Part shown: in pieces, positions 3,800 to 44,352 of the stretch | How the letters are laid out: every line of letters begins with the position of its first letter | Numbering within the stretch: position 1 is the stretch's first letter | NCBI GenBank assembly: GCA_964347975.1 | Contig: CAYGAY010000008.1 | Span: 35,283 to 99,282, forward strand | DNA: 64,000 nucleotides | Direction: 5' to 3' | Source: an uncultured Dehalococcoidia bacterium | Lineage (GTDB): Bacteria; Chloroflexota; Dehalococcoidia; Lucifugimonadales; UBA3495 | The notes under the pieces: model-generated | The model's database searches: none | Told to the model about the DNA's origin: nothing | The model's input: the letters and a program-made list of their open reading frames with translations, nothing else | Made by a program: the position numbers and the translations under genes

Positions 3800-3829
3800 G
3801 GTAGCGTTGCAATTTAGGTGGCTTAGAAC
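3800..3829 (+). repeat. Solo copy of 30-nt IS terminal repeat (copy A)
   Basis: GGTAGCGTTGCAATTTAGGTGGCTTAGAAC. Same motif at 6016, 6913 (rc), 33111 and 63503. Confidence 0.7.
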
Positions 3830-5148: not shown

Positions 5149-5487
5149 GTGTCAGCCCTGAAGCACCGTATCAAACTGACCCCGGAAGAGCACAGGAATT
5201 GCAGGCGCTGGTTTCCCGTGGGCGGGTCGCGGCCTACCAGCAGACCCATACCCACATCCTGCTACTGTGCGATGAAGCCCAGGAGGGCGGAGCCATGAAG
5301 GATGCTGAGATTGCCCAGGTCCTCAAGGTTGGCTTGGCCACGGTGGAAAGGGTGCGGCGGCGTGATGTGGAGGATGGGATTGGGGTGCAAGGCGCAATTG
5401 CGCCGCCGTGCGAAGAAGTTGGATGGTCAAGGTGAAGCATACCTGATTGCGTTGGCCTGCGGGGAACCGCCAGCCGGCCGGACGCCA
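5149..5487 (+). pseudogene. IS630-family transposase N-terminal fragment (frameshifted, truncated)
   Basis: VSALKHRIKLTPEEHR then a frame change to ELQALVSRGRVAAYQQTHTHILLLCDEAQEGGAMKDAEIAQVLKVGLATVERVRRR... and KLDGQGEAYLIALACGEPPAGR. Ends abruptly at the 15-mer GGGCTATCGCATATG (5488). Confidence 0.7.
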
Positions 5488-6001
5488 GGGCTATCGCATA
5501 TGGAATTTGGTGAATTGGGACCGGATGCTGACGAGGAAACTGTCGTCCCAACCAGCCCGTTTCAGCCTGCCTCGCATGGAACCTTTGCTGGGTTCCAGCC
5601 GCGCCGGGTTCAAGGCCAGCTCGCGCAGCAAGGCCAGGTTCGCGGCGCAAAGTCTTCCCGCCTACCGCGATGACACCCGCATAGCCCGCGGCAAACTGCC
5701 GCATGAACCCCACGAACCATCGCTGGAAGGCGTCGGGGTCAAGCAATCCCCCTTGCCCAGGCCAAAGAGTTCCATGTCGGCGCCGGTCGGGCCGCCGCAG
5801 AGCATGGCGCAAAAGGCGATAACCGGAATGTCATGGAGGGAATGGCGGCGGGCGTTGGTTGCCCGCGGGTCCTCCAGATCGGCAAATACGTCGGCTAACT
5901 CGGTCATGGCATGGTGTGTCTTCCCTTCCCTGCCGGATTAGTCAACATCATAATTAGCCAACATCATACCTAACACCGCAATTTGTCATATGCGATTGCC
6001 C
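5488..6001 (-). mobile_element. ISAs1-like IS remnant bounded by inverted 15-mers, internally deleted
   Basis: GGGCTATCGCATATG (5488-5502) and CATATGCGATTGCCC (5987-6001) are inverted. Inside, minus-strand MTELADVFADLEDPRATNARRHSLHDIPVIAFCAMLCGGPTGADMELFG (5907 downwards) is an ISAs1-type transposase N-terminus. It continues in another frame as LLDPDAFQRWFVGFMRQFA...GKTLRR. Only about 135 codons are present. Confidence 0.6.
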
Positions 6002-6015
6002 TGACCCCGATACCA

Positions 6016-6913
6016 GGTAGCGTTCCGATTCAGGTGGTTTGGTTGTACGATAGGGGCAGCGAGCAGGTTTTGGAGGTGTCCATCAGGGGGCTGCTGCATC
6101 AATTGGAAACCGAGTTGGAACAGGAGCTCCCGGTGCGATTGCGCCAAGCGTTGCCGGGGGCGCGGGACCTTTATCAGGCGCAATGTCCGGATTGCCAGTT
6201 GGCGATGCGCCGCCATCATGCTTATCGCCGTTCCATAATGACCGGCTACGGGGCAGTGGCGTTGTGGATACCGGTGTTCCGGTGCGGAGAATGCCGACGC
6301 ATGAGCGGCGGCGCCGACGTGTTGGGTGGGGATGCGCGTTATCGTCGGTACTCAAAAAAAACCGGCGAAACCGCCATGAAACTGGCGGGGCTGGGGTTGA
6401 GTTGCGCGGCGGCCAGCGGTTGGGGGTGGGGGCGGTGAAAAGCACACTGTGCCGTTGGCTGAAGTGGTGAGCGATGGCGACCGGGCCATCGCAGGGGGCC
6501 GGCAAATGGTTGCCTGCAAATGGTCTATGGGCGGGCGGTTCCCCATCAGTTGTGCCACTGAGCCACTTTCATTTGCTGCGGGAATACCGGCGCAATCTGG
6601 GTTGGGACGGCTGGCCCGAAGGGTGACGGCTGCTGGCGTCGGCCAGCGTGACCGGAGGGCAGCGATGGGCGCGGCGGGTGGCGGCCTTGACCGGCGGGCC
6701 GGCGGAATACTGGCGTCGAAAATCCTTGCGTGAGGGCCTGCGCCATTTGCAGACGGGGCCAGCGCAGTTCAATACCGCGTCGCGGCTGGAACGGCCGAAC
6801 CGGCAGTATCGCCGTCGGGAGCGGCAGGGAACGGTATGGTCGCCCCACGACCTATCGATACTCCTCCAAAAGCGTGGCCTGATCAACCAAACCACCTGAA
6901 TTGCAACGCTACC
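6016..6913 (+). mobile_element. Internally deleted (non-autonomous) IS with 30-bp terminal inverted repeats and 9-bp target duplication
   Basis: IRL GGTAGCGTTCCGATTCAGGTGGTTTGGTTG (6016-6045). IRR rc GGTAGCGTTGCAATTCAGGTGGTTTGGTTG (6913-6884). Direct repeat CCGATACCA at 6007-6015 and 6914-6922. Retains a zinc-ribbon N-terminal piece (CPDCQLAMRRHH...FRCGECRRM) and a C-terminal piece (FNTASRLERPNRQYRRRERQGTVWSPHDLSILL, IS256-like tail). Confidence 0.75.
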
Positions 6914-6922
6914 CCGATACCA

Positions 6923-7043
6923 GGGCTATCGCATATGACTATTCCCAGACAGATTGTATTGCGAGGTCAATTTCTCAAAATTTGCGGCGTTAGGCAGGCT
7001 TTCGTAATACAAACTACCCAGAAAAATTCATATGCGATAGCCC
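6923..7043. repeat. Miniature element bounded by the same inverted 15-mers as the ISAs1-like remnant
   Basis: GGGCTATCGCATATG (6923-6937), 91 bp of AT-richer DNA, then CATATGCGATAGCCC (7029-7043). Confidence 0.6.
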
Positions 7044-7064
7044 TGTTACAAGCGCCAAACAACA

Positions 7065-7093
7065 TTGACCTTAAATCGCGCCGTTGCTAAAAT
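7065..7093 (+). promoter_or_regulatory. Sigma70-like promoter of P450 copy 1
   Basis: TTGACC (7065-7070), N17, TAAAAT (7088-7093). Confidence 0.5.
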
Positions 7094-7176
7094 GTGCCTA
7101 ATCATGTTGGTGAAGCGCCAGCCCGCTTTGCGCCGGCGGTTTCAGTTTGCCTTGTAAAGTCATCGGGAGGGACTTT

Positions 7177-8463
7177 ATGGTTACCACTTTCAATGAAGAT
7201 CTGTTCTCGCCTGAGGTGATCCACGACCCCTACAGTTACTTCGGGCGGATGCGGGAAGAAGACCCGGTCCACTGGAATGCCCCCTACAAGCTCTGGGTTA
7301 TTACCAAGTACAAGGACTTGGTTTGGGTCACCCGGCGTCCGGAGGCTTTCTCGTCCGAGGTGTTCCATCGCGATCCGCTGCCCCCGTACCCCTCCATCGA
7401 CGAATCCGATATGGGCCTCTACGAGGACGTGCGGCGGTTCTTCAGCCAGTGGTTCATCCAGACCGACCGCCGGGCCGTCAGCACCCACGAGGAAATCCGC
7501 GAGCACGGCGGGCCCGATCATACCGACATGCGAAAGGTCATCCACGGCTACTTCACCCCGAAGGCTATGGAGCTCTGGCGCCCGCTGGTGCAGTCGGCCA
7601 TCAAGCAGTTGCTGGATGAGGCCGAAGATCGCGGCCACATGGACGTAATGCGTGACTACGCGACGCCGCTGCCGCTGCTGGTCATCGCTGCCATGATGGG
7701 TATTGAGACCTACGATCGGCAGTTCATCCGCTCCCTGGCCGAGAAGTTGTTGTTCATCGGGCGCGGCAACGCCGACCGGATGCAACCGTTGGCCGAGGGC
7801 ATCACCGAGTTGCAGGATTACCTGCGGCCCATGGTCAAAGAGCGGCTCAAGAATTCCAACGGCGACCTGCTGGACAAAATGACCGACGCTGCTCGCATGA
7901 CCAACGCCGCCGGCAAGCAAATTATGGATGAAGAGCAGGTCGTGGCCAACGCCATCCTGCTGCTGCTGGCCGGCCACGAGACCACCATCAACCTCATCTG
8001 CAACGGCACCCGCGCATTCATGACGCATCCCGACCAATGGGAGCTGTTCAAGACCGACCCGGCCGCCAAGACCGTCCGCGCCACCGAGGAATGCCTGCGG
8101 TTCGACGCGCCGGTCAAGTCCATCACCCGCATCGCCGGCGAGGACGTGGAACTAGGCGGCAAGCTGATCCAGAAGGACGAGCGGATGCGCTGGTTCGTTA
8201 CTTCAGCCAACCGCGACCCTGAGGTCTTCGACCGGCCCGACGACTTCGACATCGAGCGCTATCCCAACCCTCACGTTGCCTTCGGCTCCGGCATCCACCA
8301 CTGCCTGGGCGCTACGTTGGCCCGGTTGGAGGGGCAGGAGGCCTTCAAGGCCCTCGCCGAGCGGTTCCCCAACCTGAACATGGACTGCGACCCCGCGGAT
8401 CTGAGCTACACCTCCAGCATCACCTTCCGCACGTTGGAGACGCTGCCGGTGAAGCTGTCGTAA
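7177..8463 (+). CDS. Cytochrome P450, paralogue 1 (428 aa)
   Basis: LLLAGHETT I-helix, TEECLRFD (ExxR), FGSGIHHCLGATLARLEGQE Cys-ligand loop. ATG 7177 is preceded by GGGAGGG and aligns with the start of copy 2 (MVTTFNEDLFSPEV). Confidence 0.93.
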   Translation: MVTTFNEDLFSPEVIHDPYSYFGRMREEDPVHWNAPYKLWVITKYKDLVWVTRRPEAFSSEVFHRDPLPPYPSIDESDMGLYEDVRRFFSQWFIQTDRRAVSTHEEIREHGGPDHTDMRKVIHGYFTPKAMELWRPLVQSAIKQLLDEAEDRGHMDVMRDYATPLPLLVIAAMMGIETYDRQFIRSLAEKLLFIGRGNADRMQPLAEGITELQDYLRPMVKERLKNSNGDLLDKMTDAARMTNAAGKQIMDEEQVVANAILLLLAGHETTINLICNGTRAFMTHPDQWELFKTDPAAKTVRATEECLRFDAPVKSITRIAGEDVELGGKLIQKDERMRWFVTSANRDPEVFDRPDDFDIERYPNPHVAFGSGIHHCLGATLARLEGQEAFKALAERFPNLNMDCDPADLSYTSSITFRTLETLPVKLS

Positions 8464-8486
8464 CCGCTACCCGGAAAACCCGATCT

Positions 8487-8521
8487 ATCGGCCGCGGGGA
8501 AATCCGCGGCCGATTTTCATT
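8487..8521 (+). terminator. Rho-independent terminator after P450-1
   Basis: Stem ATCGGCCGCGG / CCGCGGCCGAT, loop GGAAAT, followed by TTTTCATTT. Confidence 0.7.
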
Positions 8522-8557
8522 TCGGTTTCCTGCGTACCGATCTTCGTCACCGACTTA

Positions 8558-8586
8558 TTGACATGATGCAAACCTGTAAGTACGAT
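8558..8586 (+). promoter_or_regulatory. Sigma70-like promoter of P450 copy 2
   Basis: TTGACA (8558-8563), N17, TACGAT (8581-8586). Confidence 0.5.
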
Positions 8587-8657
8587 GCAACCAATTTCGT
8601 AAGGATGCTGCTTCACGGTGGCGACAAACGCCTCTCAGTGTCAGAAGGAAGGACGCT

Positions 8658-9926
8658 ATGGTTACCACGCTGACCGATGATCTCTTCTCCCCGGAAGTGG
8701 TCCAGGATCCCTATTCCTATTTCGCGCGGATGCGGGAAGAGGACCCAGTGCACTGGAACGCTCCCTACAAGCTATGGGTGATCTCCAAGTACAAGGACTT
8801 GGTATGGGTCACCCGGCGCCCGGAACTGTTCTCGTCCGAGGTGTTCTATCGGGACCCGCTGCCTCCGTACCCCGACATCGACGAGTCCGATATGGGACTC
8901 TACGAGTACGTGAAGCAGTTCTTCGCCCAGTGGTTCATCCAGCATGACCGCCGTGCGGTGAGCGCCTACGAATCGATACGCGAGCACGGCGGTCCCGACC
9001 ATACCGATATGCGGAAGGTCATTCACGGCTACTTCAACCCCAAGGCTATGGAATCGTGGCGTCCGCTGGTCCAGTCGGCTATCAACCAGCTCTTGGACGA
9101 GGCGGAAGAGCGCGGCCACATGGACGTGATGCGCGACTACGCTACCCCACTGCCCCTGCTGGTCATCGCCGCCATGATGGGCATCGAAACCTCCGACCGG
9201 CAGTTCATCCGCTCCCTGGCCGAAAAACTGCTCTTCCTGGGCCGGGGCAACACCGACCGGATGCAACCCTTGACCGAAGGCATCATGGGCTTGCAGGAAT
9301 ACCTGCGCCCCATGGTTTCGGAGCGCATCAGGAATCCCAACGGTGACCTGCTGGACCGCATGACCGACGCCTACCGGGTCGGCGTGATGGACGAGGAGCA
9401 GGTGGTCGCCAACGCCATCCTGCTGCTGCTGGCCGGCCACGAGACCACCATCAACCTCATCTGCAACGGCACCCGGGCCTTCATGACCCACCCGGACCAA
9501 TGGGAACTGATGAAGGCTGATCCCGAAGGGCGCATGATCCGCGCCACCGAGGAGTGCCTGCGCTACGACCCGCCGGTCAAGTCCATTCAGCGCATCTCCG
9601 GCGAGGAGCTTGAGTTCGGCGGCAAGCAGATCGAGAGGAACCAGCGAATGCGGTGGTTCATCACCGGCGCCAATCGAGACCCCGAGGTCTTTGACCGGCC
9701 GGACGACTTCGACATCGAGCGATACCCCAACCCCCACGTCGCCTTCGGCTCTGGCATCCACCACTGCCTGGGCGCCACACTGGCCCGGTTAGAGGGGCAG
9801 GAAGCCTTCAAGACCCTGGCCCAACGCTTCCCCAATCTCAACCTGGGTTGCGACCCGGACGACCTCACCTACACGTCCAGCATCGCCTTCCGAACGCTGG
9901 AGCAGTTGCCGGTGAACCTGCACTGA
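8658..9926 (+). CDS. Cytochrome P450, paralogue 2 (422 aa), sister of copy 1
   Basis: Same signatures as copy 1. SD GAAGGAAGG before the ATG. Near-identical to copy 1 along its whole length except a 6-aa indel before the I-helix. Confidence 0.93.
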   Translation: MVTTLTDDLFSPEVVQDPYSYFARMREEDPVHWNAPYKLWVISKYKDLVWVTRRPELFSSEVFYRDPLPPYPDIDESDMGLYEYVKQFFAQWFIQHDRRAVSAYESIREHGGPDHTDMRKVIHGYFNPKAMESWRPLVQSAINQLLDEAEERGHMDVMRDYATPLPLLVIAAMMGIETSDRQFIRSLAEKLLFLGRGNTDRMQPLTEGIMGLQEYLRPMVSERIRNPNGDLLDRMTDAYRVGVMDEEQVVANAILLLLAGHETTINLICNGTRAFMTHPDQWELMKADPEGRMIRATEECLRYDPPVKSIQRISGEELEFGGKQIERNQRMRWFITGANRDPEVFDRPDDFDIERYPNPHVAFGSGIHHCLGATLARLEGQEAFKTLAQRFPNLNLGCDPDDLTYTSSIAFRTLEQLPVNLH

Positions 9927-9955
9927 CCGAACATCGGACCATGCGCGCCGACTAT

Positions 9956-9988
9956 GCCCGGAGGAAGTCCCTCCGGGCATTCTTTTTG
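9956..9988 (+). terminator. Rho-independent terminator after P450-2
   Basis: GCCCGGAGG-AAGT-CCCTCCGGGC followed by ATTCTTTTTGC. Confidence 0.7.
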
Positions 9989-9989
9989 C

Positions 9990-10018
9990 TTGCGGTGAGC
10001 GGTTTGCTCGCCTATAAT
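9990..10018 (+). promoter_or_regulatory. Sigma70-like promoter of P450 copy 3
   Basis: TTGCGG (9990-9995), N17, TATAAT (10013-10018). Confidence 0.5.
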
Positions 10019-10088
10019 CGAGCCATCAAAGCCCGATACCGACGTATTTCGTCGTGAGCCGCACCCGTCTAAACGGAGGTTGCACCAA

Positions 10089-11351
10089 ATGGTCAGCACC
10101 ATCAACGACAACCCCTTCTCTCTGGAGGCGATGTACCAGCCCTACGAATTCTTCGCGCGGCTGCGCGAGTGGGAGCCGGTGCATTACAACGAACAGTATG
10201 AGGTCTGGATGGTGACCGACTGGGAGCACCTGGTCTGGGTCACCCGCCATCCGGAAGTTTTCTCGTCCAGCGTCTTCGCCCGGGATGTTCGTCCGCCGAA
10301 CCCGCCCATCGACGAAGACGACATGGAGATCTATAACTACATCAAGAATTGGCAGGTTTCCCGGTTCATCCAGCACGACCAAAGGCGTTATAACCCGGAA
10401 GTCACCGGCCCTGACCACGTTGATATGCGTCGGGTGATGCACGGGTACTTCACGCCCAAGTCCATGGAGATGTGGCGTCCCCTGGTGCAAGCCTCCATCA
10501 CCGAGTTGCTGGATGCCGTGGAGGAAAAGGGCCGCATGGACGTGATGGCCGACCTGGCCACGCCATTGCCCTTGCTGGTCATCGCCCGGATGTTGGGGAT
10601 CCCGGACAGCGACCGGCCCATCATGCGCCGGCTGGCCAAGGACCTGCGTCACCTGAATCGCACCGGTCCCGACCGCATGGGGCCGCTCTCAGAGTCGGTG
10701 CAAAACCTGCAAGACTACCTGGGCCCATTGGTGGCGGAACGCGTCGCCAATCCCAAAGATGACCTGATCTCCGTGGTAGCCGAAGGCGAGCGCAAGGGCA
10801 TCTTCAATCGCGACATGGTGGTCAACAACGTGATGTTGCTCCTGTCAGCTGGCCACGAGACTACCATCAACCTGATCTGCAACGGCACGTTAGCCTTCAC
10901 CCAGCATCCGGACCAGTGGGCCAGCCTGAAATCCGATCCCGAAGGCAAGACGGTGCGGGCCACCGAAGAGTGCCTCAGGTATGATTCCCCGGTGAAGTCC
11001 ATCCAGCGCATCGCTATGGAGGACATGGAACTCAACGGCCAGGATATCAAGAAGAATGACCGGGTGCGGTGGTTCATCTCCGGCGCCAACCGCGACCCCA
11101 AGGTCTTTGACCGGGCCGACGATTTTGACATCGAGCGGTACCCCAACATGCACGTGGCCTTCGGCAGCGGCGTGCATCACTGTCTTGGCGCAACGCTGGC
11201 CCGGCTGGAAGGGCAGGAAATCTTCCGCAACCTGGCCAACCGCTTCGACAGCCTGGAGCTTGAAGTGCCCGTTGAGCAGCTGGAGTACGACCAGCTGATT
11301 GGCCTGCGGGCGTTGGAAAGCCTGCCGGTTGCGGTGACCAGCGCACACTAA
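10089..11351 (+). CDS. Cytochrome P450, paralogue 3 (420 aa)
   Basis: LLLSAGHETT, TEECLRYD, FGSGVHHCLGATLARLEGQE. ATG 10089 follows GGAGG and aligns with the copy 4 start (MVSTINDNPFSLEA). Confidence 0.93.
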   Translation: MVSTINDNPFSLEAMYQPYEFFARLREWEPVHYNEQYEVWMVTDWEHLVWVTRHPEVFSSSVFARDVRPPNPPIDEDDMEIYNYIKNWQVSRFIQHDQRRYNPEVTGPDHVDMRRVMHGYFTPKSMEMWRPLVQASITELLDAVEEKGRMDVMADLATPLPLLVIARMLGIPDSDRPIMRRLAKDLRHLNRTGPDRMGPLSESVQNLQDYLGPLVAERVANPKDDLISVVAEGERKGIFNRDMVVNNVMLLLSAGHETTINLICNGTLAFTQHPDQWASLKSDPEGKTVRATEECLRYDSPVKSIQRIAMEDMELNGQDIKKNDRVRWFISGANRDPKVFDRADDFDIERYPNMHVAFGSGVHHCLGATLARLEGQEIFRNLANRFDSLELEVPVEQLEYDQLIGLRALESLPVAVTSAH

Positions 11352-11380
11352 TGCGTTCCGCGATTCGTCGCGATCTTTCG

Positions 11381-11403
11381 GGGGCGGGCTTGAAACCCGC
11401 CCC
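11381..11403. repeat. REP-type hairpin GGGGCGGGCTTGAAACCCGCCCC (probable transcript end of P450-3)
   Basis: Perfect GC stem. The same element recurs at 42037-42065. No T-run follows. Confidence 0.6.
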
Positions 11404-11405
11404 TA

Positions 11406-11434
11406 CTGCATATCTCGGGGAAATCGGTTATAAT
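11406..11434 (+). promoter_or_regulatory. Candidate promoter of P450 copy 4
   Basis: Perfect TATAAT (11429-11434). Only a weak -35 CTGCAT at N17. Confidence 0.35.
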
Positions 11435-11504
11435 CGGCGCATCTGAGGTAGCCGGATCGCTGCCGGCCCCACGGTCCAACACGTTCCGCCGGAGGTTTCA
11501 ACCA

Positions 11505-12779
11505 ATGGTCAGCACTTTCAACGATAACCCCTTTTCGCTGGAAGCGATTTACAAGCCCTACGATTTCTACAATCGTCTGCGCGATTTCCAGCCGGTGTAC
11601 TACAACGAGGAATTCGAGGTCTGGATGGTAACCTCGTGGGAGCACATTGTCTGGGTGACGCGGCACCCGGAGGCGTTTTCCTCCAGCGTGTACGCCCGCG
11701 ACGTGCGGCCGCCAAACCCGCCTATTGATGAAGACGACATGGAACTGTACAACTTCATCAAGAAGTGGCAGGTTTCCCGGTTCATCCAGCACGACCAGCG
11801 ACGACACCATCCGGACCTGTCCGGCCCCGACCATGTGGATATGCGCCGGGTGATGCACGGCTACTTTACTCCCAAGTCCATCGAGATGTGGCGGCCCCTG
11901 GTGCAGTCGGCCATTGACGAACTGCTGGACGTCGTGGCAGAGAAGGGGCGGATGGACGTGATGGCCGACTTAGCTACGCCCCTGCCCTTGCTGGTGATTG
12001 CCCGTATGCTCGGCATTCCCGACAGCGAGCGGCCCCGGCTGCGCGAACTGGCGAAGGACCTGCGCTTCCTCAACCGCGAGGGTCCCGACCGCATGAAGCC
12101 GCTGAGCCAGGCGGTACAGAACTTGCAGGACTTCATCGCGCCCATGGTCGAGGATCGGGTGAACAACCCCGCGAAGTTCGACTCCCTGGACCTGATGATG
12201 GTGGTGTCCGAGGGCGAGCGCCAGGGCATATTCACGCGGGACCAAACCATCAACAACGTGATGCTGCTGCTGTCGGCCGGACACGAGACCACGATCAACC
12301 TCATTTGCAACGGTACGCTGGCCTTCACCCAGCACCCGGACCAGTGGGCCATCCTCAAGTCGGACCCCGAAGGGAAGACGGTGCGCGCCACTGAAGAGTG
12401 CCTGCGCTACGACTCCCCGGTTCGGTCCATCCAGCGGATCGCCACGGACGACATCGAACTGAACGATCAGATGATCAAGAAGAACGACCGGGTGCGGTGG
12501 TTCATCCCCGGCGCTAACCGGGACCCCAAGGTCTTTGACCGCGCGGATGACTTTGACATCGAGCGGTATCCCAATCCCCACGTCGCCTTCGGCAGTGGGG
12601 TCCACCACTGCTTGGGCGCCACGTTGGCCCGCCTGGAGGGACAGGAGATCTTCCGCAACCTGGCCAACCGGTTCGATAACATCGAACTGGAGATCCCGGT
12701 GGAACAGGTCGAGTACGACCGTGTCCTCACCTTCCGCGCCGTGGAAAGCCTGCCGGTTACGGTGACCAGCGCACGCTAG
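11505..12779 (+). CDS. Cytochrome P450, paralogue 4 (424 aa), sister of copy 3
   Basis: Same signatures. SD GGAGG. Near-identical to copy 3 except a 4-aa indel (NPAKFDSLDLMMVV vs NPKDDLISVV). Confidence 0.93.
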   Translation: MVSTFNDNPFSLEAIYKPYDFYNRLRDFQPVYYNEEFEVWMVTSWEHIVWVTRHPEAFSSSVYARDVRPPNPPIDEDDMELYNFIKKWQVSRFIQHDQRRHHPDLSGPDHVDMRRVMHGYFTPKSIEMWRPLVQSAIDELLDVVAEKGRMDVMADLATPLPLLVIARMLGIPDSERPRLRELAKDLRFLNREGPDRMKPLSQAVQNLQDFIAPMVEDRVNNPAKFDSLDLMMVVSEGERQGIFTRDQTINNVMLLLSAGHETTINLICNGTLAFTQHPDQWAILKSDPEGKTVRATEECLRYDSPVRSIQRIATDDIELNDQMIKKNDRVRWFIPGANRDPKVFDRADDFDIERYPNPHVAFGSGVHHCLGATLARLEGQEIFRNLANRFDNIELEIPVEQVEYDRVLTFRAVESLPVTVTSAR

Positions 12780-12810
12780 TCTCCGTAGTCCGCAAACGCG
12801 CCCAAGACGG

Positions 12811-12850
12811 AGCCGGCGGTCGCGAGAGTGGCTGCCGGGCTTCGTCTTTT
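12811..12850 (+). terminator. Imperfect hairpin plus T-run after P450-4
   Basis: AGCCGGCGG...CTGCCGGGCT followed by TCGTCTTTTC. Confidence 0.45.
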
Positions 12851-12864
12851 CAGTTGGTGACGGT

Positions 12865-12893
12865 TTGAATTGTTGCACTGCTTATGATAATTT
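12865..12893 (+). promoter_or_regulatory. Sigma70-like promoter of P450 copy 5
   Basis: TTGAAT (12865-12870), N17, TAATTT (12888-12893), with TG two nt upstream. Confidence 0.45.
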
Positions 12894-12930
12894 TGACGGC
12901 GAATTGGCCCGCCGCCGGAGGGGTTCAGAT

Positions 12931-14160
12931 ATGCCTGCCAACATCCACGATGACTTGTTCGCGCCGGAGGCCATTCAGGATCCTTACGCCTATTTCGGCG
13001 CGCTCCGTTCTGAAGCGCCTGTCCATTGGAACGCGCAGTACCGGATGTGGGTTGTGACCAGCTACGAGCGGTTGGTCTGGACGGCGCGCCATCCCGAGTA
13101 CTTCTCTTCGGAAGTTGCGCTGCGTGATACCCGGCCGCCGGCCCCGTCCATACCGGAAGAGGATATGGAGCTATTCGGCGCGGTGCGCAACTGGATGGCC
13201 GCCCGCTTCACCCAGAACGACGGAGCGAAACACATAGAGAAGCGCAAGGTAGTCCACGGGTACTTCACGCCCAAAGCTATGGAAACCTGGCGTCCCCTGG
13301 TGCGGCAGACGGTGAACGATCTGTTGGATGACCTGCAAGGGGCGGGGCGCATGGACGTAATGCACGACTTCGCCACGCCGCTAACCTACAGCATCATCGC
13401 CGGCCTGATGGACATACCGCCCAGCGACCGGGCCTTCGTCAAGGAACTATGCGGGAGGATGTGCGGGTTTGACGGCAACCAGCCTGACCGCATACGTATG
13501 TTCGCCGAAGGCGTACAAGCCGTGACCGACTACCTGGCGCCCATCGTGGCCGAGCGGGTGCGGGATCCCGGAGATGACCTGCTGTCCGTCATCTGCAAAG
13601 GCGAAATAATGGGCGCCTACACCCGAGATGAAGTCTTGGCCAACGCCCTGCTTCTTTTGACAGCCGGTCACGAGACCACCAACGACCTGATCGCCAACGG
13701 TGTGCTGGCATTTGCACAACATTCCGACCAGTTCAACCTGCTTCGGACCGATCCAGACGCCCACATCGTCAACGCCGTGGAAGAGGTCCTGCGCTACGAC
13801 TCGCCGCTGAAGTCTGTGCAGCGCATCGCGACCCAGGACGTTGACATGGGCGACGGGCAACAGGTCGGCAAGGACGACCGGGTGCGTTGGGTTATCTCAT
13901 CGGCCAACCGGGACCCGGAGATCTTCGAGAATCCCGACGACCTGGACATCACCCGCAACCCCAACCCCCACGTTTCCTTTGGCAGCGGCGTCCACCACTG
14001 CCTCGGAGCAACGCTGGCCAGGTTGGAGGGGCAGGAAGCCTTCGCCGAGTTGGCTCGCCGGTTTGAAGGATTCCAGCTGGAAACTGCTCCCGAGGAACTG
14101 GAATACCTGCCCAGCGTAGGCCAACGCACTCTGCTCAACCTGCCGGTCGCAACCCGCTAG
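12931..14160 (+). CDS. Cytochrome P450, paralogue 5 (409 aa), most divergent copy
   Basis: LLLTAGHETT, VEEVLRYD, FGSGVHHCLGATLARLEGQE. ATG 12931 follows GGAGGGG and aligns with the other copies (MPANIHDDLFAPEAIQDPYAYF). Confidence 0.92.
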   Translation: MPANIHDDLFAPEAIQDPYAYFGALRSEAPVHWNAQYRMWVVTSYERLVWTARHPEYFSSEVALRDTRPPAPSIPEEDMELFGAVRNWMAARFTQNDGAKHIEKRKVVHGYFTPKAMETWRPLVRQTVNDLLDDLQGAGRMDVMHDFATPLTYSIIAGLMDIPPSDRAFVKELCGRMCGFDGNQPDRIRMFAEGVQAVTDYLAPIVAERVRDPGDDLLSVICKGEIMGAYTRDEVLANALLLLTAGHETTNDLIANGVLAFAQHSDQFNLLRTDPDAHIVNAVEEVLRYDSPLKSVQRIATQDVDMGDGQQVGKDDRVRWVISSANRDPEIFENPDDLDITRNPNPHVSFGSGVHHCLGATLARLEGQEAFAELARRFEGFQLETAPEELEYLPSVGQRTLLNLPVATR

Positions 14161-14228
14161 CCGCCGGCGCCGCTTTCATTACTCGCAACACGCTAAATTC
14201 GTCTGACCACCACGAGGAGGTTACCCCA

Positions 14229-14453
14229 ATGGCCCGACAGTTGAAGATTACCGTGGACTACAACGTTTGCGTGGGCAACGCCATGTGCGAAACCTTCGCG
14301 GTCAACACGTTCGGCCTCAACGAAGACCGTCAGTCCTACGTGAAGGACCCGGCCGGCGATCCTGAGGAAACTATCCTGGAAGCCGCCGAAAATTGCCCGG
14401 TGACCGCCATCACGGTGGAGGACGCTGAGACCGGGGAGATCCTCTTCCCGTAG
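14229..14453 (+). CDS. Small single-cluster ferredoxin, 3Fe-4S type (74 aa)
   Basis: CVGNAMC...CP, i.e. C-x2-N-x2-C(n)CP with Asn where 4Fe-4S proteins carry the extra Cys. SD GGAGG. No terminator between P450-5 and this gene. Confidence 0.85.
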   Translation: MARQLKITVDYNVCVGNAMCETFAVNTFGLNEDRQSYVKDPAGDPEETILEAAENCPVTAITVEDAETGEILFP

Positions 14454-14477
14454 CCTCAATCGAAGTTGGCTTGTCTA

Positions 14478-14509
14478 GGGGCGAATGATTATTCGCCCTT
14501 ACATTTTGG
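14478..14509. terminator. Bidirectional terminator between ferredoxin and LLM gene
   Basis: GGGCGAAT-GATT-ATTCGCCC, with T-runs on the plus side (TTACATTTT). Sits at the convergent gene ends. Confidence 0.6.
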
Positions 14510-15500
14510 CAATCACGTCCTCGCCAAAACGCTGGATTATGTCGCCCGGGTCATGGCTGATGGCGGTGATTTGCAGCACATCAACTCCGGCGCCGCCGAT
14601 CTGCGCTACCTTGGCGCGACATTCCTCGGGCGTGCCGACCACGGCGAAGCGGTCAGCCAGGTAATCGGTGACGCCGAACTCGTCGGTTATGGCGGCGTTG
14701 CGAGTGTCGCCGACCTGTTCATGTTCGGCGGGCACATATTCGCCCTGAATGGCCATCATGGCTTCCTGCATCTCTTCGGGCACGTGCTTGCCTTCCAGAG
14801 TGAAACGGAAGGCGTGGTGCGCGCTGGCGGCCAGGGCCATCTTGATTTCAGCAATGGCCGCGTCGTGGTCGGCGGCGATGTTGCATTTGGCGAAAGCCCA
14901 GATCTCCGTTGATCCCAGGGGTTTGCCGACGTTCCATTCGCCGGCCCGAACGTGGGCCACCGTGTCCTCGAGAATCTCCGGTGTCAGCCCGGTATGAATC
15001 ATGGCGCGGTCGGCGATCTCACCGGCGATGCGCAGGGTGCGCGGCCCTTCGGCGGACAGCATAATGGGCGCCGGGCCGGCGCTCCATCGCACGTGGCCCT
15101 CTCGCCCAAAGTATTCGGCGGTTTCGCCGGACATGAAGGAACGCACCGCGCCGACGTACTCACGCAACGCGGCGAGCCGAGCCGGTCGCAAGCCCACGTT
15201 CAGGATGGCGGAGTCTCCGGTGCCGATGCCGAGGAACGCCCGGCCACCGGAAAGCTCCTGTAGCGACGCGATGGCGGAGGCAGTAACCGCCGGGTGTCGG
15301 GTCAAAGGGTTGGTGACCGATGGCCCCAGGTGGACCCGTTCGGTTTCCATCGCGGCCACCGTCAGGGAGACGAACAACTCGCGGAAAAGCGATTGGGAAT
15401 CGGCGACGCCGATGTAATCAAAACCGACTGATTCCGCCAGACGCGCGTGGCGGCGGAAAGATTCGTAGGACGATGGCAGAAGAGTTACGCCGTATTTCAT
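14499..15500 (-). CDS. LLM-class (luciferase-like) flavin/F420-dependent oxidoreductase
   Basis: 333 aa: MKYGVTLLPS...FDYIGVADSQ...LGIGTGDS..., typical luciferase-like monooxygenase layout. Confidence 0.8.
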   Translation of the reverse strand: MKYGVTLLPSSYESFRRHARLAESVGFDYIGVADSQSLFRELFVSLTVAAMETERVHLGPSVTNPLTRHPAVTASAIASLQELSGGRAFLGIGTGDSAILNVGLRPARLAALREYVGAVRSFMSGETAEYFGREGHVRWSAGPAPIMLSAEGPRTLRIAGEIADRAMIHTGLTPEILEDTVAHVRAGEWNVGKPLGSTEIWAFAKCNIAADHDAAIAEIKMALAASAHHAFRFTLEGKHVPEEMQEAMMAIQGEYVPAEHEQVGDTRNAAITDEFGVTDYLADRFAVVGTPEECRAKVAQIGGAGVDVLQITAISHDPGDIIQRFGEDVIAKM

Positions 15501-29548: not shown

Positions 29549-29803
29549 AGGCGTTCCGGCAGTCTTCCGGATCCCACCTGTCCGGCGATTTCCCCCGGTC
29601 ATAGATTTTCGCCCGATCTTCATACGGGGCGCCGCGCCGGGATGCCAGCGAAGATCAGACTGCCTTCCGCCGTCAGTGCCCTGCGGCATTCCCTTATCCA
29701 ACGAAGTCGCGTAGTTTCGGGGCAGAACCATGTACAGTATCGGACATCAGGAAGGGCAACCGGGCCGCCACCGGCAGCGTACCCACACGGAGGACAGCAG
29801 GCA

Positions 29804-30268
29804 ATGAGTTTGGAGGACATCGAACGCAGGCTCCGCGCCTTGGAAGACGTTGAGGAGATCAAGCGGCTCAAAGCACTTTACTGCACCTACTGCGACGACA
29901 ATTACCGCGCCGATAAGATCGCCAGCCTGTTCGTTGAGGACGCGGTTTGGGACGGCGGCATAAGGGGCCGGGCAGAAGGACGAGACGGCATCCGCGAGTT
30001 TTTCGTCAACGCTTCGAACCGGCTGCCTTTCGCCATTCACATGGTCATGAACCCCATCATCGAGGTTGACGGGGACACCGCCACCGGCATCTGGTACCTG
30101 TTTCAGGCGTGTACTTACGCCGACGGCGACCGGGCGGTTTGGGGTTCGGCGAGGTACGACGAAGAGTACGTGAGGGTAGATGGCGTCTGGATGTTCAAGC
30201 GCCTGAAATTGACGTCCCATTTCTGGACCCCCTTCGATGAAGGGTGGGCCAAAGCTCAGTTCGTGTAG
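29804..30268 (+). CDS. SnoaL-like / NTF2-fold protein (154 aa)
   Basis: MSLEDIERRLRALEDVEEIKRLKALYCTYCDD...W.DGG...G.DGIREFF, pattern of SnoaL_4-type proteins. SD GGAGG. Confidence 0.7.
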   Translation: MSLEDIERRLRALEDVEEIKRLKALYCTYCDDNYRADKIASLFVEDAVWDGGIRGRAEGRDGIREFFVNASNRLPFAIHMVMNPIIEVDGDTATGIWYLFQACTYADGDRAVWGSARYDEEYVRVDGVWMFKRLKLTSHFWTPFDEGWAKAQFV

Positions 30269-30306
30269 GATGGAGTCGGACCCGGTTATCTTGCGGACGG
30301 TGCAGT

Positions 30307-31824
30307 ATGCGTACAGGAGCTGATTACAAAGAGAGTTTGCGCGATGGCCGCGACGTGTGGGTCCTGGGCGAGGGCGCCGTGGCGGACGTAACTACGCACC
30401 CGGCCACGTCGGGCATGGTAGGGGAGTATGTGGCGTGGTATGACCGCCACTTCGACGCCGATTGGCAGGATATTCTCCTGACCGATCCGGATGACAGCGG
30501 CGAACGGCGTCCCTGGGCGCTCACTCCTCCAAAAACGCCCGATGAACTGAGACGCTTAGGGAAAGAGATCAGCGCCGTCCATTTCGTGACCGGTGGGAAC
30601 ATGACCCACACCCCGGGTTACGGCGCATTCATTTCTCTGGGGTTGTTGAATGTCATGAAGCGTCTGGAGCACTCCTCTGAAGATATTCAGAAGGCCGAGG
30701 AGTACCGGGAATATATATCCCGGAGCGGCCGGTTTCTCACCTACGCCGGCGGCGGCCCGCTGATCGGCGCTCGGCTCCGACCGGACGAGAGCGAGCGGGT
30801 GGCGCTCCGTCTGGTTAGCGAAACCGCCGACGGCATCGTGATAAGCGGCAAAATCCAGATGCACACCAGCACCCCTTTCGCAGAAGATCTGCTGATCAGC
30901 ACCCGGAATGATATGCCGCCCGGCAGCGGGCGGCACTTGTGGTTTGTAGTTCCCGTGAACGCGCCCGGCCTGCGAGTGGTGTCGCGCCGAATGGCTGCCA
31001 GGCACAATAATTCGTTCCTGTCGCCACTGAGCAGCCGTTTTGATGAACTGGATTCCATGGTGTGGCTGGAGGACGTTTTCATTCCCCGCTCTCGCGTTTT
31101 CACCGGGGAACCCCCGGAACGAAACCGGCGCCAATCGCTGGTGTGCTGGATGCTCTGGCATCACTGCTACGGCTGGCTGGCCAAAGCCGAACTGAGTTTG
31201 GGTATCGCCCTGGCCTTGGCTGAAATCATGGGCCTCAAGTCCAATCCTCAGACTGTTGAGCAGCTATCCGAGATGACCGTCAACGTCCAGACCACGCGCA
31301 CTTGTCTCACGGCGGCGGAACTGGACACGGAGCCGACGGCCAGCGGGTATATCCTGCCCAACCAGCTTCACGTGGCCGCGGCGGGGGTGAATATTCTCAA
31401 GGTGCGCCAGCGTATGGGCGAGTTGCTGCGGAGCCTTCCTGGTTCCTCCTTGATTAACGCACCTGCCGATACCGACTTCGCTGACCCCAAAATGGCTGCC
31501 GAGCTGGAAGATTCCTTTGGCGGCGGCGGCTACACAGCGATGCAACGGGCGGCGCTGCTGCAACTGGCCTGGGACCAGGTTTCGTCGAGTTTAGACGGGA
31601 GAGAGGCAGCCTTTGAGATGCACGCCAGCGGCGGTTTGGACGCATGGCGCAGCCAAGTGGCATCCTGGTTTGACCGCTATAACGAGTTGGCAAATGGCGT
31701 ACACCAGTTTGTCCGGACGGACCTGCCATCTATGGACCTCTCCGGCTTGCAAGAGGCGGCGGGGCCGCCCCGTCGAATCCCCCAAGTCAACGCTCAGACG
31801 CTCAACCCCCAGGCCGCAAATTAA
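30307..31824 (+). CDS. 4-hydroxyphenylacetate 3-hydroxylase (HpaB) family flavin-dependent monooxygenase component
   Basis: MRTGADYKESLRDGRDVWVLGE...THPA N-terminus typical of the HpaB/4-hydroxybutyryl-CoA dehydratase family. 505 aa. Confidence 0.75.
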   Translation: MRTGADYKESLRDGRDVWVLGEGAVADVTTHPATSGMVGEYVAWYDRHFDADWQDILLTDPDDSGERRPWALTPPKTPDELRRLGKEISAVHFVTGGNMTHTPGYGAFISLGLLNVMKRLEHSSEDIQKAEEYREYISRSGRFLTYAGGGPLIGARLRPDESERVALRLVSETADGIVISGKIQMHTSTPFAEDLLISTRNDMPPGSGRHLWFVVPVNAPGLRVVSRRMAARHNNSFLSPLSSRFDELDSMVWLEDVFIPRSRVFTGEPPERNRRQSLVCWMLWHHCYGWLAKAELSLGIALALAEIMGLKSNPQTVEQLSEMTVNVQTTRTCLTAAELDTEPTASGYILPNQLHVAAAGVNILKVRQRMGELLRSLPGSSLINAPADTDFADPKMAAELEDSFGGGGYTAMQRAALLQLAWDQVSSSLDGREAAFEMHASGGLDAWRSQVASWFDRYNELANGVHQFVRTDLPSMDLSGLQEAAGPPRRIPQVNAQTLNPQAAN

Positions 31825-31859
31825 CGGCAAGGAAGGATTCTAAGGCCGGCAGGTGGCAT

Positions 31860-32642
31860 ATGGGTCAGATGGACGGAATGGTTGCTATCGTCACCGGCGC
31901 CAGCCGGGGACTGGGGCGAGCCATTGCCAGGGAATACGCCAGGGAAGGCGCGAGCGTGGTCATCTGCGCCCGGAGCCCATCCCCAACCGGGTTGACCGGG
32001 ACACTGGACGAAACGGCGAACGACATCAGGAACGCCGGCGGGGATGTCCTGGCAATATCCTGTGACGTTACCAATGCGGATGAGGTCAACCAAATGGTCC
32101 GCCGAGCGTCCGATCGATACGGCAAGATTGACGTGCTGTTCAACAACGCCGGCGCCATGGTGCTGGGTGAGACGATTATGGAAATTGACCCTGTCCGTTG
32201 GGACCAACTGATGCGGGTCAACGTGAGCGGGCCGTATCTTTGCAGCCGAGCCGTGCTTCCGATCATGATGGAGCAGCAGCGGGGCAGCATCATCAACATC
32301 GGCTCAAGAATGGCCACCGATCCCAACCAGGGCGGCGGCGTCCTCTACAGCGCCAGCAAGGCCGCGGTTCATATGTTCACCTACTGCCTGGCCGACGAGG
32401 TGAAAGACTACAACATCGCTGTCAACGTTCTCAGCCCCGGCGCGCTGCGCAGCGAGGGATCCGCTGCAATCCCGTGGACGCAACGGGATTGGCACGAGCG
32501 CGTAGATCCGAGCGTAGTGGGGCCTTGCGCCGTGTATCTGGCGCTGCAGGACGCCAGCACATTTACCGGCCAATTGGCATTTCGCGCGGACTTCGGCACA
32601 ACTTGGGGCCCGGGCGTCGCGGACGGATCGACCGCATCGTGA
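31860..32642 (+). CDS. SDR-family oxidoreductase
   Basis: VTGASRGLGRAIA (TGxxxGxG), NNAG, YSASKAAV (YxxxK). Confidence 0.88.
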   Translation: MGQMDGMVAIVTGASRGLGRAIAREYAREGASVVICARSPSPTGLTGTLDETANDIRNAGGDVLAISCDVTNADEVNQMVRRASDRYGKIDVLFNNAGAMVLGETIMEIDPVRWDQLMRVNVSGPYLCSRAVLPIMMEQQRGSIINIGSRMATDPNQGGGVLYSASKAAVHMFTYCLADEVKDYNIAVNVLSPGALRSEGSAAIPWTQRDWHERVDPSVVGPCAVYLALQDASTFTGQLAFRADFGTTWGPGVADGSTAS

Positions 32643-32866: not shown

Positions 32867-32927
32867 AGAGACTACCGTGTAGTTAGATTAACACAAAGGG
32901 TGGCGCCCTGTAAAGTAAGTCGGCCCG

Positions 32928-33098
32928 CTCATGCGTACCCACTTTGTCATTGCGAGCGTAGCGTGGCAATCTCGCCGGCGTAGCAATGGCCGTTCCGTCG
33001 AGGCTCTCGCAACAGAAAGCGACGACCGCCGGAACGAGATTCCATCGCCCGCCGGCGGCGGTCGTGGAATGACCGGTTAAAGTGGGTACGTATGAGAG
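32928..33098 (+). repeat. MITE-like composite intergenic repeat, copy M2
   Basis: Terminal inverted repeats CTCATGCGTACCCACTTTGTCATT / AATGACCGGTTAAAGTGGGTACGTATGAG. Internal GTCATTGCGAGCG...CGTGGAATGAC hairpin modules (translate to the familiar ARNDK-type junk peptides). Confidence 0.8.
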
Positions 33099-33110
33099 TC
33101 GCCCGCCGTG

Positions 33111-33140
33111 GGTAGCGTTGCAATTTAGGTGGTTTAATTT
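33111..33140 (+). repeat. Solo copy of 30-nt IS terminal repeat (copy D)
   Basis: GGTAGCGTTGCAATTTAGGTGGTTTAATTT, 12 bp from the end of M2. No transposase follows. Confidence 0.7.
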
Positions 33141-36754: not shown

Positions 36755-36807
36755 GAGCGCAGGATACCAGACCCGGCCCGGCCCGACATAAGAGACAATC
36801 CGCCGCT

Positions 36808-36975
36808 AACGTATACCCGCTTTGTCATTGCGAGCGCAGCGCGGCAATCTCGTCGGCGTAGCAATGGCCGCTCCGGCAAGACTCTCTCAGCCGGCGGCAG
36901 CCACCGCCGGAACGAGATCCCATCGCCCGCCTACGGCGAGCGTGGAATGACAAGTTAGAGTGGGTACGCATGAGA
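36808..36975 (+). repeat. MITE-like composite intergenic repeat, copy M3
   Basis: AACGTATACCCGCTTTGTCATTGCGAGCGCAGCGCGGCAATCTCG...CGTGGAATGACAAGTTAGAGTGGGTACGCATGAG. Collinear with M2. Confidence 0.8.
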
Positions 36976-36986
36976 ATCGACCGCTA

Positions 36987-44343: not shown

Positions 44344-44352
44344 CGCCGGAAC

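Follow-up and report, generated by a model that had tools for sequence, protein, structure and literature searches.

A conserved tandem array of five cytochrome P450 paralogs with one terminal three-cysteine ferredoxin in a Dehalococcoidia genome

The 64-kb stretch of contig CAYGAY010000008.1 analyzed here (called the window), from an uncultured Dehalococcoidia bacterium, carries five cytochrome P450 genes (P1 to P5) in tandem on one strand, followed by one gene for a small ferredoxin with three cysteines. We consider it probable that this locus is a tandem radiation of a class I P450-ferredoxin module, with copies that would be transcribed as separate units and act in catabolism. Its unusual points are that five separately signaled paralogs stand with a single terminal ferredoxin, that the arrangement is kept in about 54 species, and that the enzymes belong to no assignable CYP family; its layout aside, the array is an ordinary class I P450 system.

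The array and its conservation in related genomes

P1 (7177 to 8463; 428 amino acids), P2 (8658 to 9926; 422 amino acids), P3 (10089 to 11351; 420 amino acids), P4 (11505 to 12779; 424 amino acids), P5 (12931 to 14160; 409 amino acids), and the ferredoxin gene (14229 to 14453; 74 amino acids) all lie on the forward strand. A preliminary description of this DNA had reported five same-strand P450 open reading frames (ORFs) of 409 to 428 amino acids. Our coordinates agree with it, the starts and lengths of the genes match the public gene calls for the source contig (ENA ERZ21849000, NODE_79; 94 kb), and each product matches Pfam PF00067 with 75.7 to 93.2 bits against a cut-off of 22.8 (E values of 1e-21 to 1e-26). 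The full P450 signatures that it listed are present in every copy: an I-helix AGHETT with the acid-alcohol pair of the (A/G)Gx(D/E)T(T/S) motif, an ExxR motif (EECLR or EEVLR), and the Cys loop FGSG(I/V)HHCLGATLARLEGQE, a heme-thiolate loop of the form FxxGxxxCxG. P1 as modeled by AlphaFold2 adopts the P450 fold and aligns with solved P450s at TM scores of 0.8 to 0.9.

P1 and P2 are 83.6% identical in amino acids and 81.7% in nucleotides, and P3 and P4 are 81.7% identical in amino acids. Amino acid identity between the two pairs is 55 to 60%, and P5, the most diverged copy, shares 50 to 54% with every other. The nested pairing proposed earlier stands, on these identities and on the tree presented below, but "near-identical," the term applied to P1 and P2, overstates a pair that differs at these levels in both protein and nucleotide sequence.

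When P1 was used to scan a single genome for each species, 78 loci were retrieved, and 54 of them have the array layout, reproducing its order in related genomes: three to five P450 genes, the ferredoxin, a convergent LLM-class oxidoreductase gene, sometimes Uma2, and then aroC and aroE. The records of all 54 are labeled Dehalococcoidia, Chloroflexi/Chloroflexota, or SAR202 cluster bacterium; closed chromosomes of 3.3 to 4.7 Mb are numerous among them. The five-gene form occurs in the six independent assemblies nearest the window (loci L002 to L005, L040, and L041), and L045 and L051 have a five-gene form of a different kind. Every P450 gene extracted from the loci was intact (242/242), and the ortholog groups show no variation in the Cys loop or AGHETT and retain ExxR.

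NODE_79, the contig that contains the window, was assembled from short metagenomic reads, and assembly might in principle have expanded the locus or joined strain variants into a chimera. We give this explanation practically no weight, because the identical five-gene order recurs in assemblies made independently, among them the closed chromosomes OY763072.1, OY843611.1, and OY762251.1, and because the paralogs differ by about 18% or more in nucleotides, which is too distant for strain variants. The five-gene array is real.

The copies are not equally widespread. A position-1 gene and P5 are present in all 54 related arrays and P4 in 52 of them (it is missing from L046 and L049), whereas P2 was found in 9 of 54 and P3 is missing from about nine related genomes. 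The position-1 copy, P4, and P5 are therefore the core set, and P2 and P3, being often absent, are dispensable accessories.

Two homologs are recorded under the sponge Geodia barretti, and the names SB0666, IRC4, RHO3, and bin87 of metagenome-assembled genomes (MAGs) are ones that we take to come from sponge microbiome studies. For these reasons, the host of the array is most likely a sponge-associated SAR202 bacterium. More distant homologs are recorded under "Candidatus Entotheonella" and Tectomicrobia.

Origin and divergence of the copies

A neighbor-joining tree of the copies and their homologs resolved five monophyletic ortholog groups, in which P1 and P2 are sisters, P3 and P4 are sisters, and P5 lies outside, in agreement with the nested duplications first suggested for this locus. 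The groups contain 44 (P1), 19 (P2), 45 plus 2 (P3), 52 (P4), and 54 (P5) members. That of P2 combines the true position-2 genes of nine loci with a 416-amino-acid type that occupies position 1 in L042 to L051. No P450 remnants were found in the 41 enlarged spacers described below, so loss and gain of copies must be told apart by tree topology alone.

Outside the array clade, members of the same P450 family, 56 to 67% identical, occur as one to three copies beside the same ferredoxin in other Dehalococcoidia, Nitrospinota, Alphaproteobacteria, Rokubacteria, Actinomycetota, and Entotheonella. The P450-ferredoxin pairing is present in 76 of the 79 loci examined, and in 15 of the 76 loci with a ferredoxin the gap between the two genes is 7 to 10 nucleotides (nt), shorter than any spacer in the array. 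When P5 was used as the query, orthologs were recovered down to about 70% identity, and below that level only the same widespread family at 56 to 57%. Because relatives in other phyla carry the P450-ferredoxin pair and P5 has no nearer relative outside, the array reads as a lineage-specific tandem radiation of a single P450-ferredoxin module.

Within ortholog groups, dN/dS (the ratio of nonsynonymous to synonymous substitution rates) is 0.05 to 0.07, indicating that each copy is strongly constrained by purifying selection. Between the sister copies of the window it is two to three times higher (0.14 for P1/P2 and 0.11 for P3/P4), so that protein change has been faster between sister paralogs than between orthologs.

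The regions in which the copies differ were mapped onto the secondary structure of the AlphaFold2 model of P1 (pLDDT, 79.8; pTM, 0.83). Insertions or deletions that set sister copies apart had been placed in substrate-access elements, a view that the model does not uphold: the six-residue insertion of P1 maps to the H-I loop (P1 residues 241 to 251) and the four-residue insertion of P4 to the G-H loop (226 to 230), rather than to the F-G or B-C regions, and both are therefore predicted to lie outside the access elements and the classical substrate recognition regions. The B-C loop shortens stepwise from P1/P2 to P3/P4 to P5, where it is shortest, with length differences between pairs and not within them. 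Fixed differences, meaning residues constant within each ortholog group and different between sisters, fall in the B-C/B' region (73, 84, 86, and 96) and the G helix (211) for P1/P2 and, for P3/P4, in the F helix, the F-G loop, the G helix, substrate recognition site 5 (SRS5; 314), and a beta-4 hairpin block (414 to 417; SRS6). Between groups, no such difference falls in the Cys loop, and a single one falls in each of the K helix, the L helix, and the meander. As mapped on the model, these positions support the proposed diversification of substrate recognition among the copies.

A run of 68 nt across the I helix, identical between P1 (from 7945) and P2 (from 9408), had been taken as a hint of gene conversion. 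The run itself is exact, but it is slight evidence for conversion. Hardly any nucleotide of the stretch varies among all P1 and P2 orthologs, and the copies in the window carry the consensus; a permutation test gave a P value of 0.0002 for raw sequences, 0.013 when conditioned on identical amino acids, and a nonsignificant 0.24 when made on clade consensus sequences. Gene conversion was accordingly rejected as a significant feature of the window. A scan across genomes returned one candidate conversion tract per paralog pair and none in the window.

These two tracts, in L040 (P1/P2, alignment columns ~420 to 540) and L045 (P3/P4, columns ~780 to 900), are the only windows of the data set in which paralogs of the same genome are at least 95% identical, compared with about 85% in other genomes, and may represent sporadic conversion.

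Both tracts, the 68-nt run, and a copy number that varies from three to five between species would suit an amplification for gene dosage only, in which redundant copies are kept similar by occasional conversion. We regard this as very unlikely, given that the copies are 16 to 50% diverged in protein, that each forms its own clean ortholog clade across about 54 species, which excludes ongoing concerted evolution, and that the evidence for conversion is as slight as described; the fixed differences of the sisters in substrate recognition regions and their raised dN/dS argue in the same direction.

Layout of transcription units

The spacers between the P450 genes measure, in order, 194, 162, 153, and 151 nt, and 68 nt separate P5 from the ferredoxin gene. 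A GC-rich hairpin lies 24 to 34 nt past the stop codon of each of P1 to P4, all on the forward strand. Those after P1 (8487 to 8514; 12 pairs followed by a T-run), P2 (9954 to 9980; 11 pairs followed by a T-run), and P4 (12813 to 12838; 11 pairs) are recognized by a strict scan for intrinsic terminators, defined by a GC-rich stem-loop plus a T-run. The hairpin after P3 (11381 to 11403; GGGGCGGGCTTGAAACCCGCCCC) is without a clear T-run and resembles repetitive extragenic palindromic (REP) elements; hairpins of its type lie 3' of genes in relatives as well. As the slightly longer GGGGCGGGYTTGAAACCCGCCCCTAC, it occurs twice in the window (11381 to 11406 and 42040 to 42065), with zero occurrences expected by chance, and GGGGCG...CGCCCC is the commonest post-gene hairpin in related genomes. 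A hairpin in every P450 spacer, one of them of REP type, was thus correctly described at the outset. In the window, no hairpin follows P5, and the next one (14476 to 14501), placed between the convergent ferredoxin and LLM genes, is likely a bidirectional terminator.

The same pattern holds in the related loci. By the statistic of at least 9 pairs within 90 nt of the stop codon, computed per sequence with coding windows as controls, a hairpin follows 98% of P1, 100% of P2, 98% of P3, 98% of P4, and 96% of ferredoxin genes, 31% of random coding windows, and none (0%) of the P5 genes, which fits the claim that only P5 runs without a terminator into the ferredoxin. Hairpin tails contain about 4 T's per 10 nt versus 1.4 in controls, and 34 to 68% of hairpins across species have at least 5 T's in a 10-nt tail, versus 0% of controls. 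Between species, the hairpins vary in sequence and keep their structure, behavior expected of terminators. RNAalifold, run on MAFFT alignments of the post-gene regions, yielded no consensus structure, a result of the hairpins being unlike in sequence and misaligned. Among Rfam families, a scan of 6800 to 14700 detected no riboswitch or leader; its four matches, all below the gathering score, overlap hairpins or coding sequence.

A promoter-like site precedes each P450 gene, for P2 to P5 downstream of the hairpin in the spacer, and all five sites lie on the forward strand. That of P1 (7065 to 7093) is TTGACC-17-TAAAAT, and TTGACC-17-TA(C/A/G)AAT stands upstream of 44 of 44 P1 orthologs; P2 has TTGACA-17-TACGAT (8558 to 8586), and P3 has TTGCGG-17-TATAAT (9990 to 10018), the TATAAT being kept across its orthologs. 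P4 (11406 to 11434) combines a perfect TATAAT with a weak -35 box, CTGCAT, in a region where TCGGTTATAATCGG is kept across 52 orthologs. P5 has TTGAAT-17-TAATTT with a TGn extended -10 (12865 to 12893), within the island GTTTGAAtTgT...TGATAatTT, conserved in 54 orthologs. The pairing TTGxxx-N17-TAxxxT that had been claimed after each hairpin fails for P4 at the -35 box. Sigma-70-like matches of at least 9 of 12 positions were found upstream of 100% of P1, 100% of P2, 96% of P3, and 81% of P4 genes, compared with 1% of coding controls. GGAGG-type Shine-Dalgarno (SD) sites precede all six genes, and in the upstream alignments the -35 and -10 boxes and the SD site form conserved islands while the rest of the spacers is variable.

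Insertions into the spacers provide a further line of evidence. In relatives, 41 inter-P450 spacers are enlarged by insertion sequence (IS) elements or other inserts of 0.3 to 1.4 kb, with spacers of 1.0 to 1.4 kb in L010, L015, L022, L039, L040, L045, and L052, and the genes downstream are intact in every case; the P5-ferredoxin spacer, by comparison, is 60 to 98 nt and uninterrupted in 54 of 54 loci. The closest relative (L085, equivalent to L002) has a complete same-strand DDE_Tnp_1 transposase gene (378 amino acids; L085 12824 to 13960) between P3 and P4 and a second copy 6 kb upstream, and the window holds only fragments of such elements.

An alternative that we consider unlikely is a single polycistronic operon read from the P1 promoter, its hairpins being REP-like stabilizing or processing elements or leaky attenuators that tune expression levels. 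The genes do share one strand and have short spacers, the hairpin at 11381 is a repeated REP-like element, GGGGCG...CGCCCC hairpins follow many genes, and T-rich tails are limited to the fraction of hairpins given above. An operon would leave unexplained, however, why conserved -35/-10 islands lie downstream of every hairpin and why a same-strand IS with its transposase gene (L002/L085) and the inserts in the other enlarged spacers are tolerated by downstream genes that remain intact and constrained. Moreover, the sole operon-like junction, P5-ferredoxin, differs in every respect. The layout of individually transcribed copies proposed earlier is one on which hairpins, promoter boxes, and tolerated insertions concur across about 54 species. 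Comparative evidence thus gives good support to P1 to P4 as predicted separate transcription units, to five putative promoters, and to P5 and the ferredoxin gene, which are probably cotranscribed, as a bicistron.

Two further features of the spacers were observed. In about 18 relatives, the P4-P5 spacer contains an insert of about 0.65 to 0.8 kb with two minus-strand ORFs of 81 to 115 amino acids (for example, L002 16926 to 17451 and L008 14288 to 14873) that is absent from the window; the two ORFs look HicA/HicB-like by eye and have no Pfam match. The leader of P1 contains a short, partly conserved hairpin plus T-run at 7123 to 7149 (CCGCTTTGCGCCGGCGG TTTCAGTTTG), between promoter and SD site, which has no Rfam match and could be an attenuator. 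No regulator gene adjoins the array, and "independently regulated," as the copies were first called, is an overstatement.

Ferredoxin and electron supply

The ferredoxin has a Fer4_13 domain (Pfam) of the single-cluster type and matches no NCBIfam model. Its gene 68 nt past P5 fits the class I arrangement of a small ferredoxin encoded with a P450. The protein contains exactly three cysteines, in the pattern C14-VG-N17-AM-C20...C56-P57, and conforms to CXX?XXC(X)nCP, with a non-Cys residue at "?" and a C-terminal Cys-Pro. The C-x2-N-x2-C...CP motif had been recognized from the start, and as CVGNAMC...CP it is kept, across phyla, in 72 of the 76 loci that bear the ferredoxin. Among solved structures, it is closest to the single-cluster ferredoxins of Pyrococcus, Thermotoga, and Desulfovibrio, the best PDB match being the Pyrococcus furiosus ferredoxin, which aligns an Asp with Asn17; more distant matches are 8AMP, a "possible" ferredoxin, and 4ID8, a "putative" one (E values of 8e-4 and 1.4e-3). 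Judging from the cysteine pattern, the cluster is most likely [3Fe-4S].

As previously stated, the window contains no ferredoxin reductase, polyketide synthase (PKS), nonribosomal peptide synthetase (NRPS), or terpene synthase among the scanned ORFs of at least 200 amino acids; the unscanned ORFs of that size lie opposite called genes or are pheS, aroC, aroE, or valS by public calls. The NAD(P)H-dependent FAD ferredoxin reductase of a class I system may be encoded elsewhere, and in such systems a location away from the P450 and ferredoxin genes is common. The 10-kb flanks of relatives with gene calls contain no ferredoxin reductase either. SAR202 genomes encode an oxoglutarate:ferredoxin oxidoreductase (Landry et al. 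2017, PMC5395668), which could be the source of reduced ferredoxin.

Genomic context and likely function

Profile and sequence searches did not lead to a CYP family. The closest solved P450s, 25 to 33% identical, are PksS (4YZR), BioI (3EJB), CYP109A2 (5OFQ), the CYP125 ancestor (8VXI), Vdh, PikC, and CYP142, enzymes of a set that acts on fatty acyl, steroid, vitamin D, or macrolide substrates, and NCBIfam equivalog matches are to biosynthetic P450s, all far below the cut-offs. By convention a CYP family begins at 40% or more amino acid identity, a line that is not reached for CYP107, CYP109, CYP125, or CYP142, the families with solved structures that were compared. With identities below 40% and NCBIfam scores so low, no structurally characterized CYP family appears assignable to the array.

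The array is flanked in relatives by pdxS, pdxT, an ATPase gene, and tmk upstream and by aroC, aroE, and valS downstream, and distant homologs adjoin CoA-transferases, LLMs, hydrolases, and transporters. In the window, the neighbor is an LLM-class oxidoreductase gene on the minus strand (14499 to 15500), closest to the F420-dependent Mer type. A gene of this class is convergent to the ferredoxin gene in 54 of 54 array loci, and LLM genes lie near the P450-ferredoxin genes in 10 of 27 distant loci, two directly upstream in Entotheonella. A functional link of this gene to the array is suspected.

PksS, a tailoring P450 of bacillaene and the PDB entry with the best sequence match (E value of 2.5e-67), the macrolide P450s among the other matches, and the subthreshold NCBIfam matches could be taken to mean that these enzymes tailor a secondary metabolite whose core genes lie elsewhere in the genome. 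That reading strikes us as quite improbable, as the matches are 29 to 33% identical and far below family cut-offs, and the search of the window for a PKS, an NRPS, or a terpene synthase was negative for the scanned ORFs of at least 200 amino acids; no biosynthetic core enzyme of the kind that defines a gene cluster around tailoring P450s (a PKS, an NRPS, a terpene synthase, or a RiPP precursor or maturase) was found in the 10-kb flanks of the relatives examined. The neighbors are also of another kind, consisting of pdxST, tmk, aroC, aroE, and valS and, around distant homologs, the enzyme families named above. The context is catabolic or housekeeping and not that of a biosynthetic cluster, as had been argued before.

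SAR202 bacteria, which abound in sponges and the deep ocean, are proposed to oxidize recalcitrant organic matter with expanded enzyme families that have no known substrate (PMC5395668, PMC6306507). Because the neighbors share enzyme families expanded in SAR202 for recalcitrant-matter oxidation, we favor, by analogy, a catabolic role in which the P450s would carry out the first hydroxylation of hydrophobic, possibly carboxylated substrates.

Three observations touch on this context. In L061 (Nitrospinota; 7089 to 9862) and L062 (an unclassified MAG; 7170 to 9862), two same-strand family III CoA-transferase genes lie just upstream of the P450-ferredoxin pair, which hints that the P450 family may act on CoA-activated or carboxylated substrates. 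The window also encodes cytochrome c oxidase at 42961 to 47945 (COX2, COX1, COX3, and COX4_pro with a cytochrome c domain), which implies an aerobic lifestyle, consistent with O2-dependent P450 chemistry. A second small oxidative group on the forward strand (29642 to 32642) comprises a SnoaL_4 protein, an HpaB-like two-component flavin monooxygenase, and an SDR.

Upstream boundary and repeats

Synteny with relatives begins at about 7040 to 7052, 20 nt before the -35 box of P1 and just past a repeat end of the IS or miniature inverted-repeat transposable element (MITE) type (CATATGCGATAGCCCTG; 7029 to 7045, forward strand), which marks the 5' boundary of the conserved array and has three further copies in the window. 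Upstream of the array, the window contains transposase and methyltransferase fragments and pheST in place of the pdxST and tmk of relatives. As judged from this comparison, a rearrangement replaced the ancestral upstream flank and left the P1 promoter untouched. The preliminary description of an LLM-class neighbor and an "IS graveyard" is confirmed by the gene at 14499 to 15500 and by these IS remnants.

The window has two families of IS/MITE-end-like repeats, CATATGCGATAGCCCTG (4 copies) and GGTAGCGTTGCAATTTAGGTGGTTTA (5 copies), at 6889 to 6937 (minus strand), 7029 to 7045 (plus strand), 5486 to 5502, 5987 to 6003, 3800 to 3825, 6016 to 6041, 32957 to 32982, 33111 to 33136, and 63503 to 63528. 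One inverted pair brackets about 90 nt just 5' of the P1 promoter, at the point where synteny breaks off. A direct repeat of 182 nt with 82% identity between its copies (32925 to 33106 and 36803 to 36984, 3.9 kb apart), lies beside an IS-end repeat. In relatives, a conserved minus-strand ORF of 72 amino acids lies directly upstream of the array (L085 7954 to 8172; L086 to L088 9427 to 9645) and looks by eye like the C-terminal part of Rdx/SelW-like proteins; the window lacks this ORF owing to the upstream rearrangement.

Proposed mechanism

The evidence can be combined into the following model. P1 to P4 would each have their own sigma-70-like promoter, SD site, and terminator-like hairpin, and P5 would have its own promoter with read-through into the ferredoxin gene. 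The single ferredoxin would pass electrons, one at a time, to all five P450s. A gene located elsewhere would supply the enzyme that reduces it, whether an FAD ferredoxin reductase or a 2-oxoacid:ferredoxin oxidoreductase. Each P450 might then hydroxylate a different hydrophobic substrate (aliphatic, alicyclic, terpenoid, or steroid-like and possibly carboxylated) as the first catabolic step, which would match the expansions of oxidative paralogs in SAR202.

Several points weigh against this interpretation. The promoter and terminator calls are inferences from consensus and conservation, the hairpins might instead stabilize mRNA, and a strict promoter scan detects the P5 site in 2% of genomes, that site being recognizable only by its conserved extended -10 type. 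Sequence does not reveal which type of cluster the ferredoxin has: the Asp of the P. furiosus ferredoxin at the Asn17 position still ligates a 4Fe-4S cluster, and either 4Fe or 3Fe is possible. Since no ferredoxin reductase was found, the electron chain lacks a component. SAR202 genomes contain LLM genes in such numbers that one could stand beside the array by chance. P1 served as the query that recruited the related loci, which gives a biased view of the ancestral copy, and the substrate class is a guess from neighbors and from structural relatives at 29 to 33% identity.

A broader reading would join these observations as a symbiosis-linked adaptive radiation of an unnamed CYP family, with sterols, terpenoids, and alicyclic lipids of the sponge host or its diet being oxidized, the ferredoxin supplied without a reductase, and the products processed by the LLM enzyme. 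We consider it rather doubtful. In it, the Asn-type ferredoxin would need no dedicated NAD(P)H reductase and would receive its electrons from a source such as a 2-oxoacid:ferredoxin oxidoreductase, and, if this were true, P450 activity would be tied directly to central carbon oxidation.

The locus provides a compact test set of five soluble P450s and a ferredoxin, with clear ortholog groups, constrained copies, and differences in substrate recognition regions. Expressing this set could give a first biochemical handle on what sponge symbionts oxidize. Its layout is a natural example of a two-gene P450-ferredoxin operon growing into a multipromoter array with a single redox partner, and it leaves the general concept of P450 systems unchanged.

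Comparison with known systems

The closest parallel is with the P450-ferredoxin systems of Mycobacterium. Child et al., in Chem Sci in 2018, reportedly described P450-adjacent ferredoxins of M. marinum and M. tuberculosis of the form CXX?XXC(X)nCP, in which "?" is His, Asn, Tyr, Ser, Thr, or Phe, and those with a non-Cys residue at this position, including Asn, are said to be P450 partners with 3Fe-4S clusters. The array resembles these systems in having a single-cluster ferredoxin of about 70 amino acids directly after a P450, with three Cys, an Asn, and no reductase alongside. Unlike the mycobacterial systems, which have one P450 per ferredoxin, it has one ferredoxin behind five separately signaled P450s; it belongs to Chloroflexota, and its ferredoxin is distant from the solved 8AMP and 4ID8. 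With P450s of the CYP107, CYP109, and CYP125 types, the array enzymes share fold, catalytic motifs, solubility, and length, but they are 29 to 33% identical to them, with equivalog scores far below the cut-offs.

In the camphor (CAM) pathway of Pseudomonas putida, P450cam and putidaredoxin are followed by a dehydrogenase and a luciferase-like Baeyer-Villiger monooxygenase. The array likewise places P450 and ferredoxin genes beside that of an LLM-family enzyme, suggesting hydroxylation and then further alicyclic oxidation. However, its LLM is nearest to F420-dependent Mer reductases and not to FMN Baeyer-Villiger enzymes, it has no linked dehydrogenase or reductase, and its ferredoxin is of a 3Fe/4Fe type, unlike the 2Fe-2S ferredoxin of the CAM pathway. 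We take this analogy as a lead only.

Within SAR202, expansions of FMNO/LLM enzymes, CaiB/BaiF CoA-transferases, and SDRs have been described (Landry et al. 2017, PMC5395668; Bayer et al. 2018, PMC6306507). Landry et al. (PMC5395668) mention in passing "several versions" of P450 and propose the oxidation of recalcitrant organic matter; P450 is not mentioned by Bayer et al. (PMC6306507) or Saw et al. (2020, PMC6946804), and a tandem P450 array with a shared ferredoxin is not described in these three SAR202 papers, to which our literature comparison was confined. The array resembles the known expansions in belonging to the same lineage, in comprising many diverged paralogs of one oxidative enzyme, and in having LLM and CoA-transferase genes near P450-ferredoxin genes.

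A cluster in "Candidatus Entotheonella" (L080 to L082) consists of two LLM genes on the minus strand, a P450, a ferredoxin, a second P450, and a third P450 nearby. Entotheonella is a sponge symbiont. Its P450 is 64% identical to P1, and, as in the array, a Fer4_13 ferredoxin directly follows the first P450, with several P450s and LLM neighbors. Unlike in the array, the ferredoxin sits between P450s and the copies are fewer; the Entotheonella cluster is an independent expansion in another phylum.

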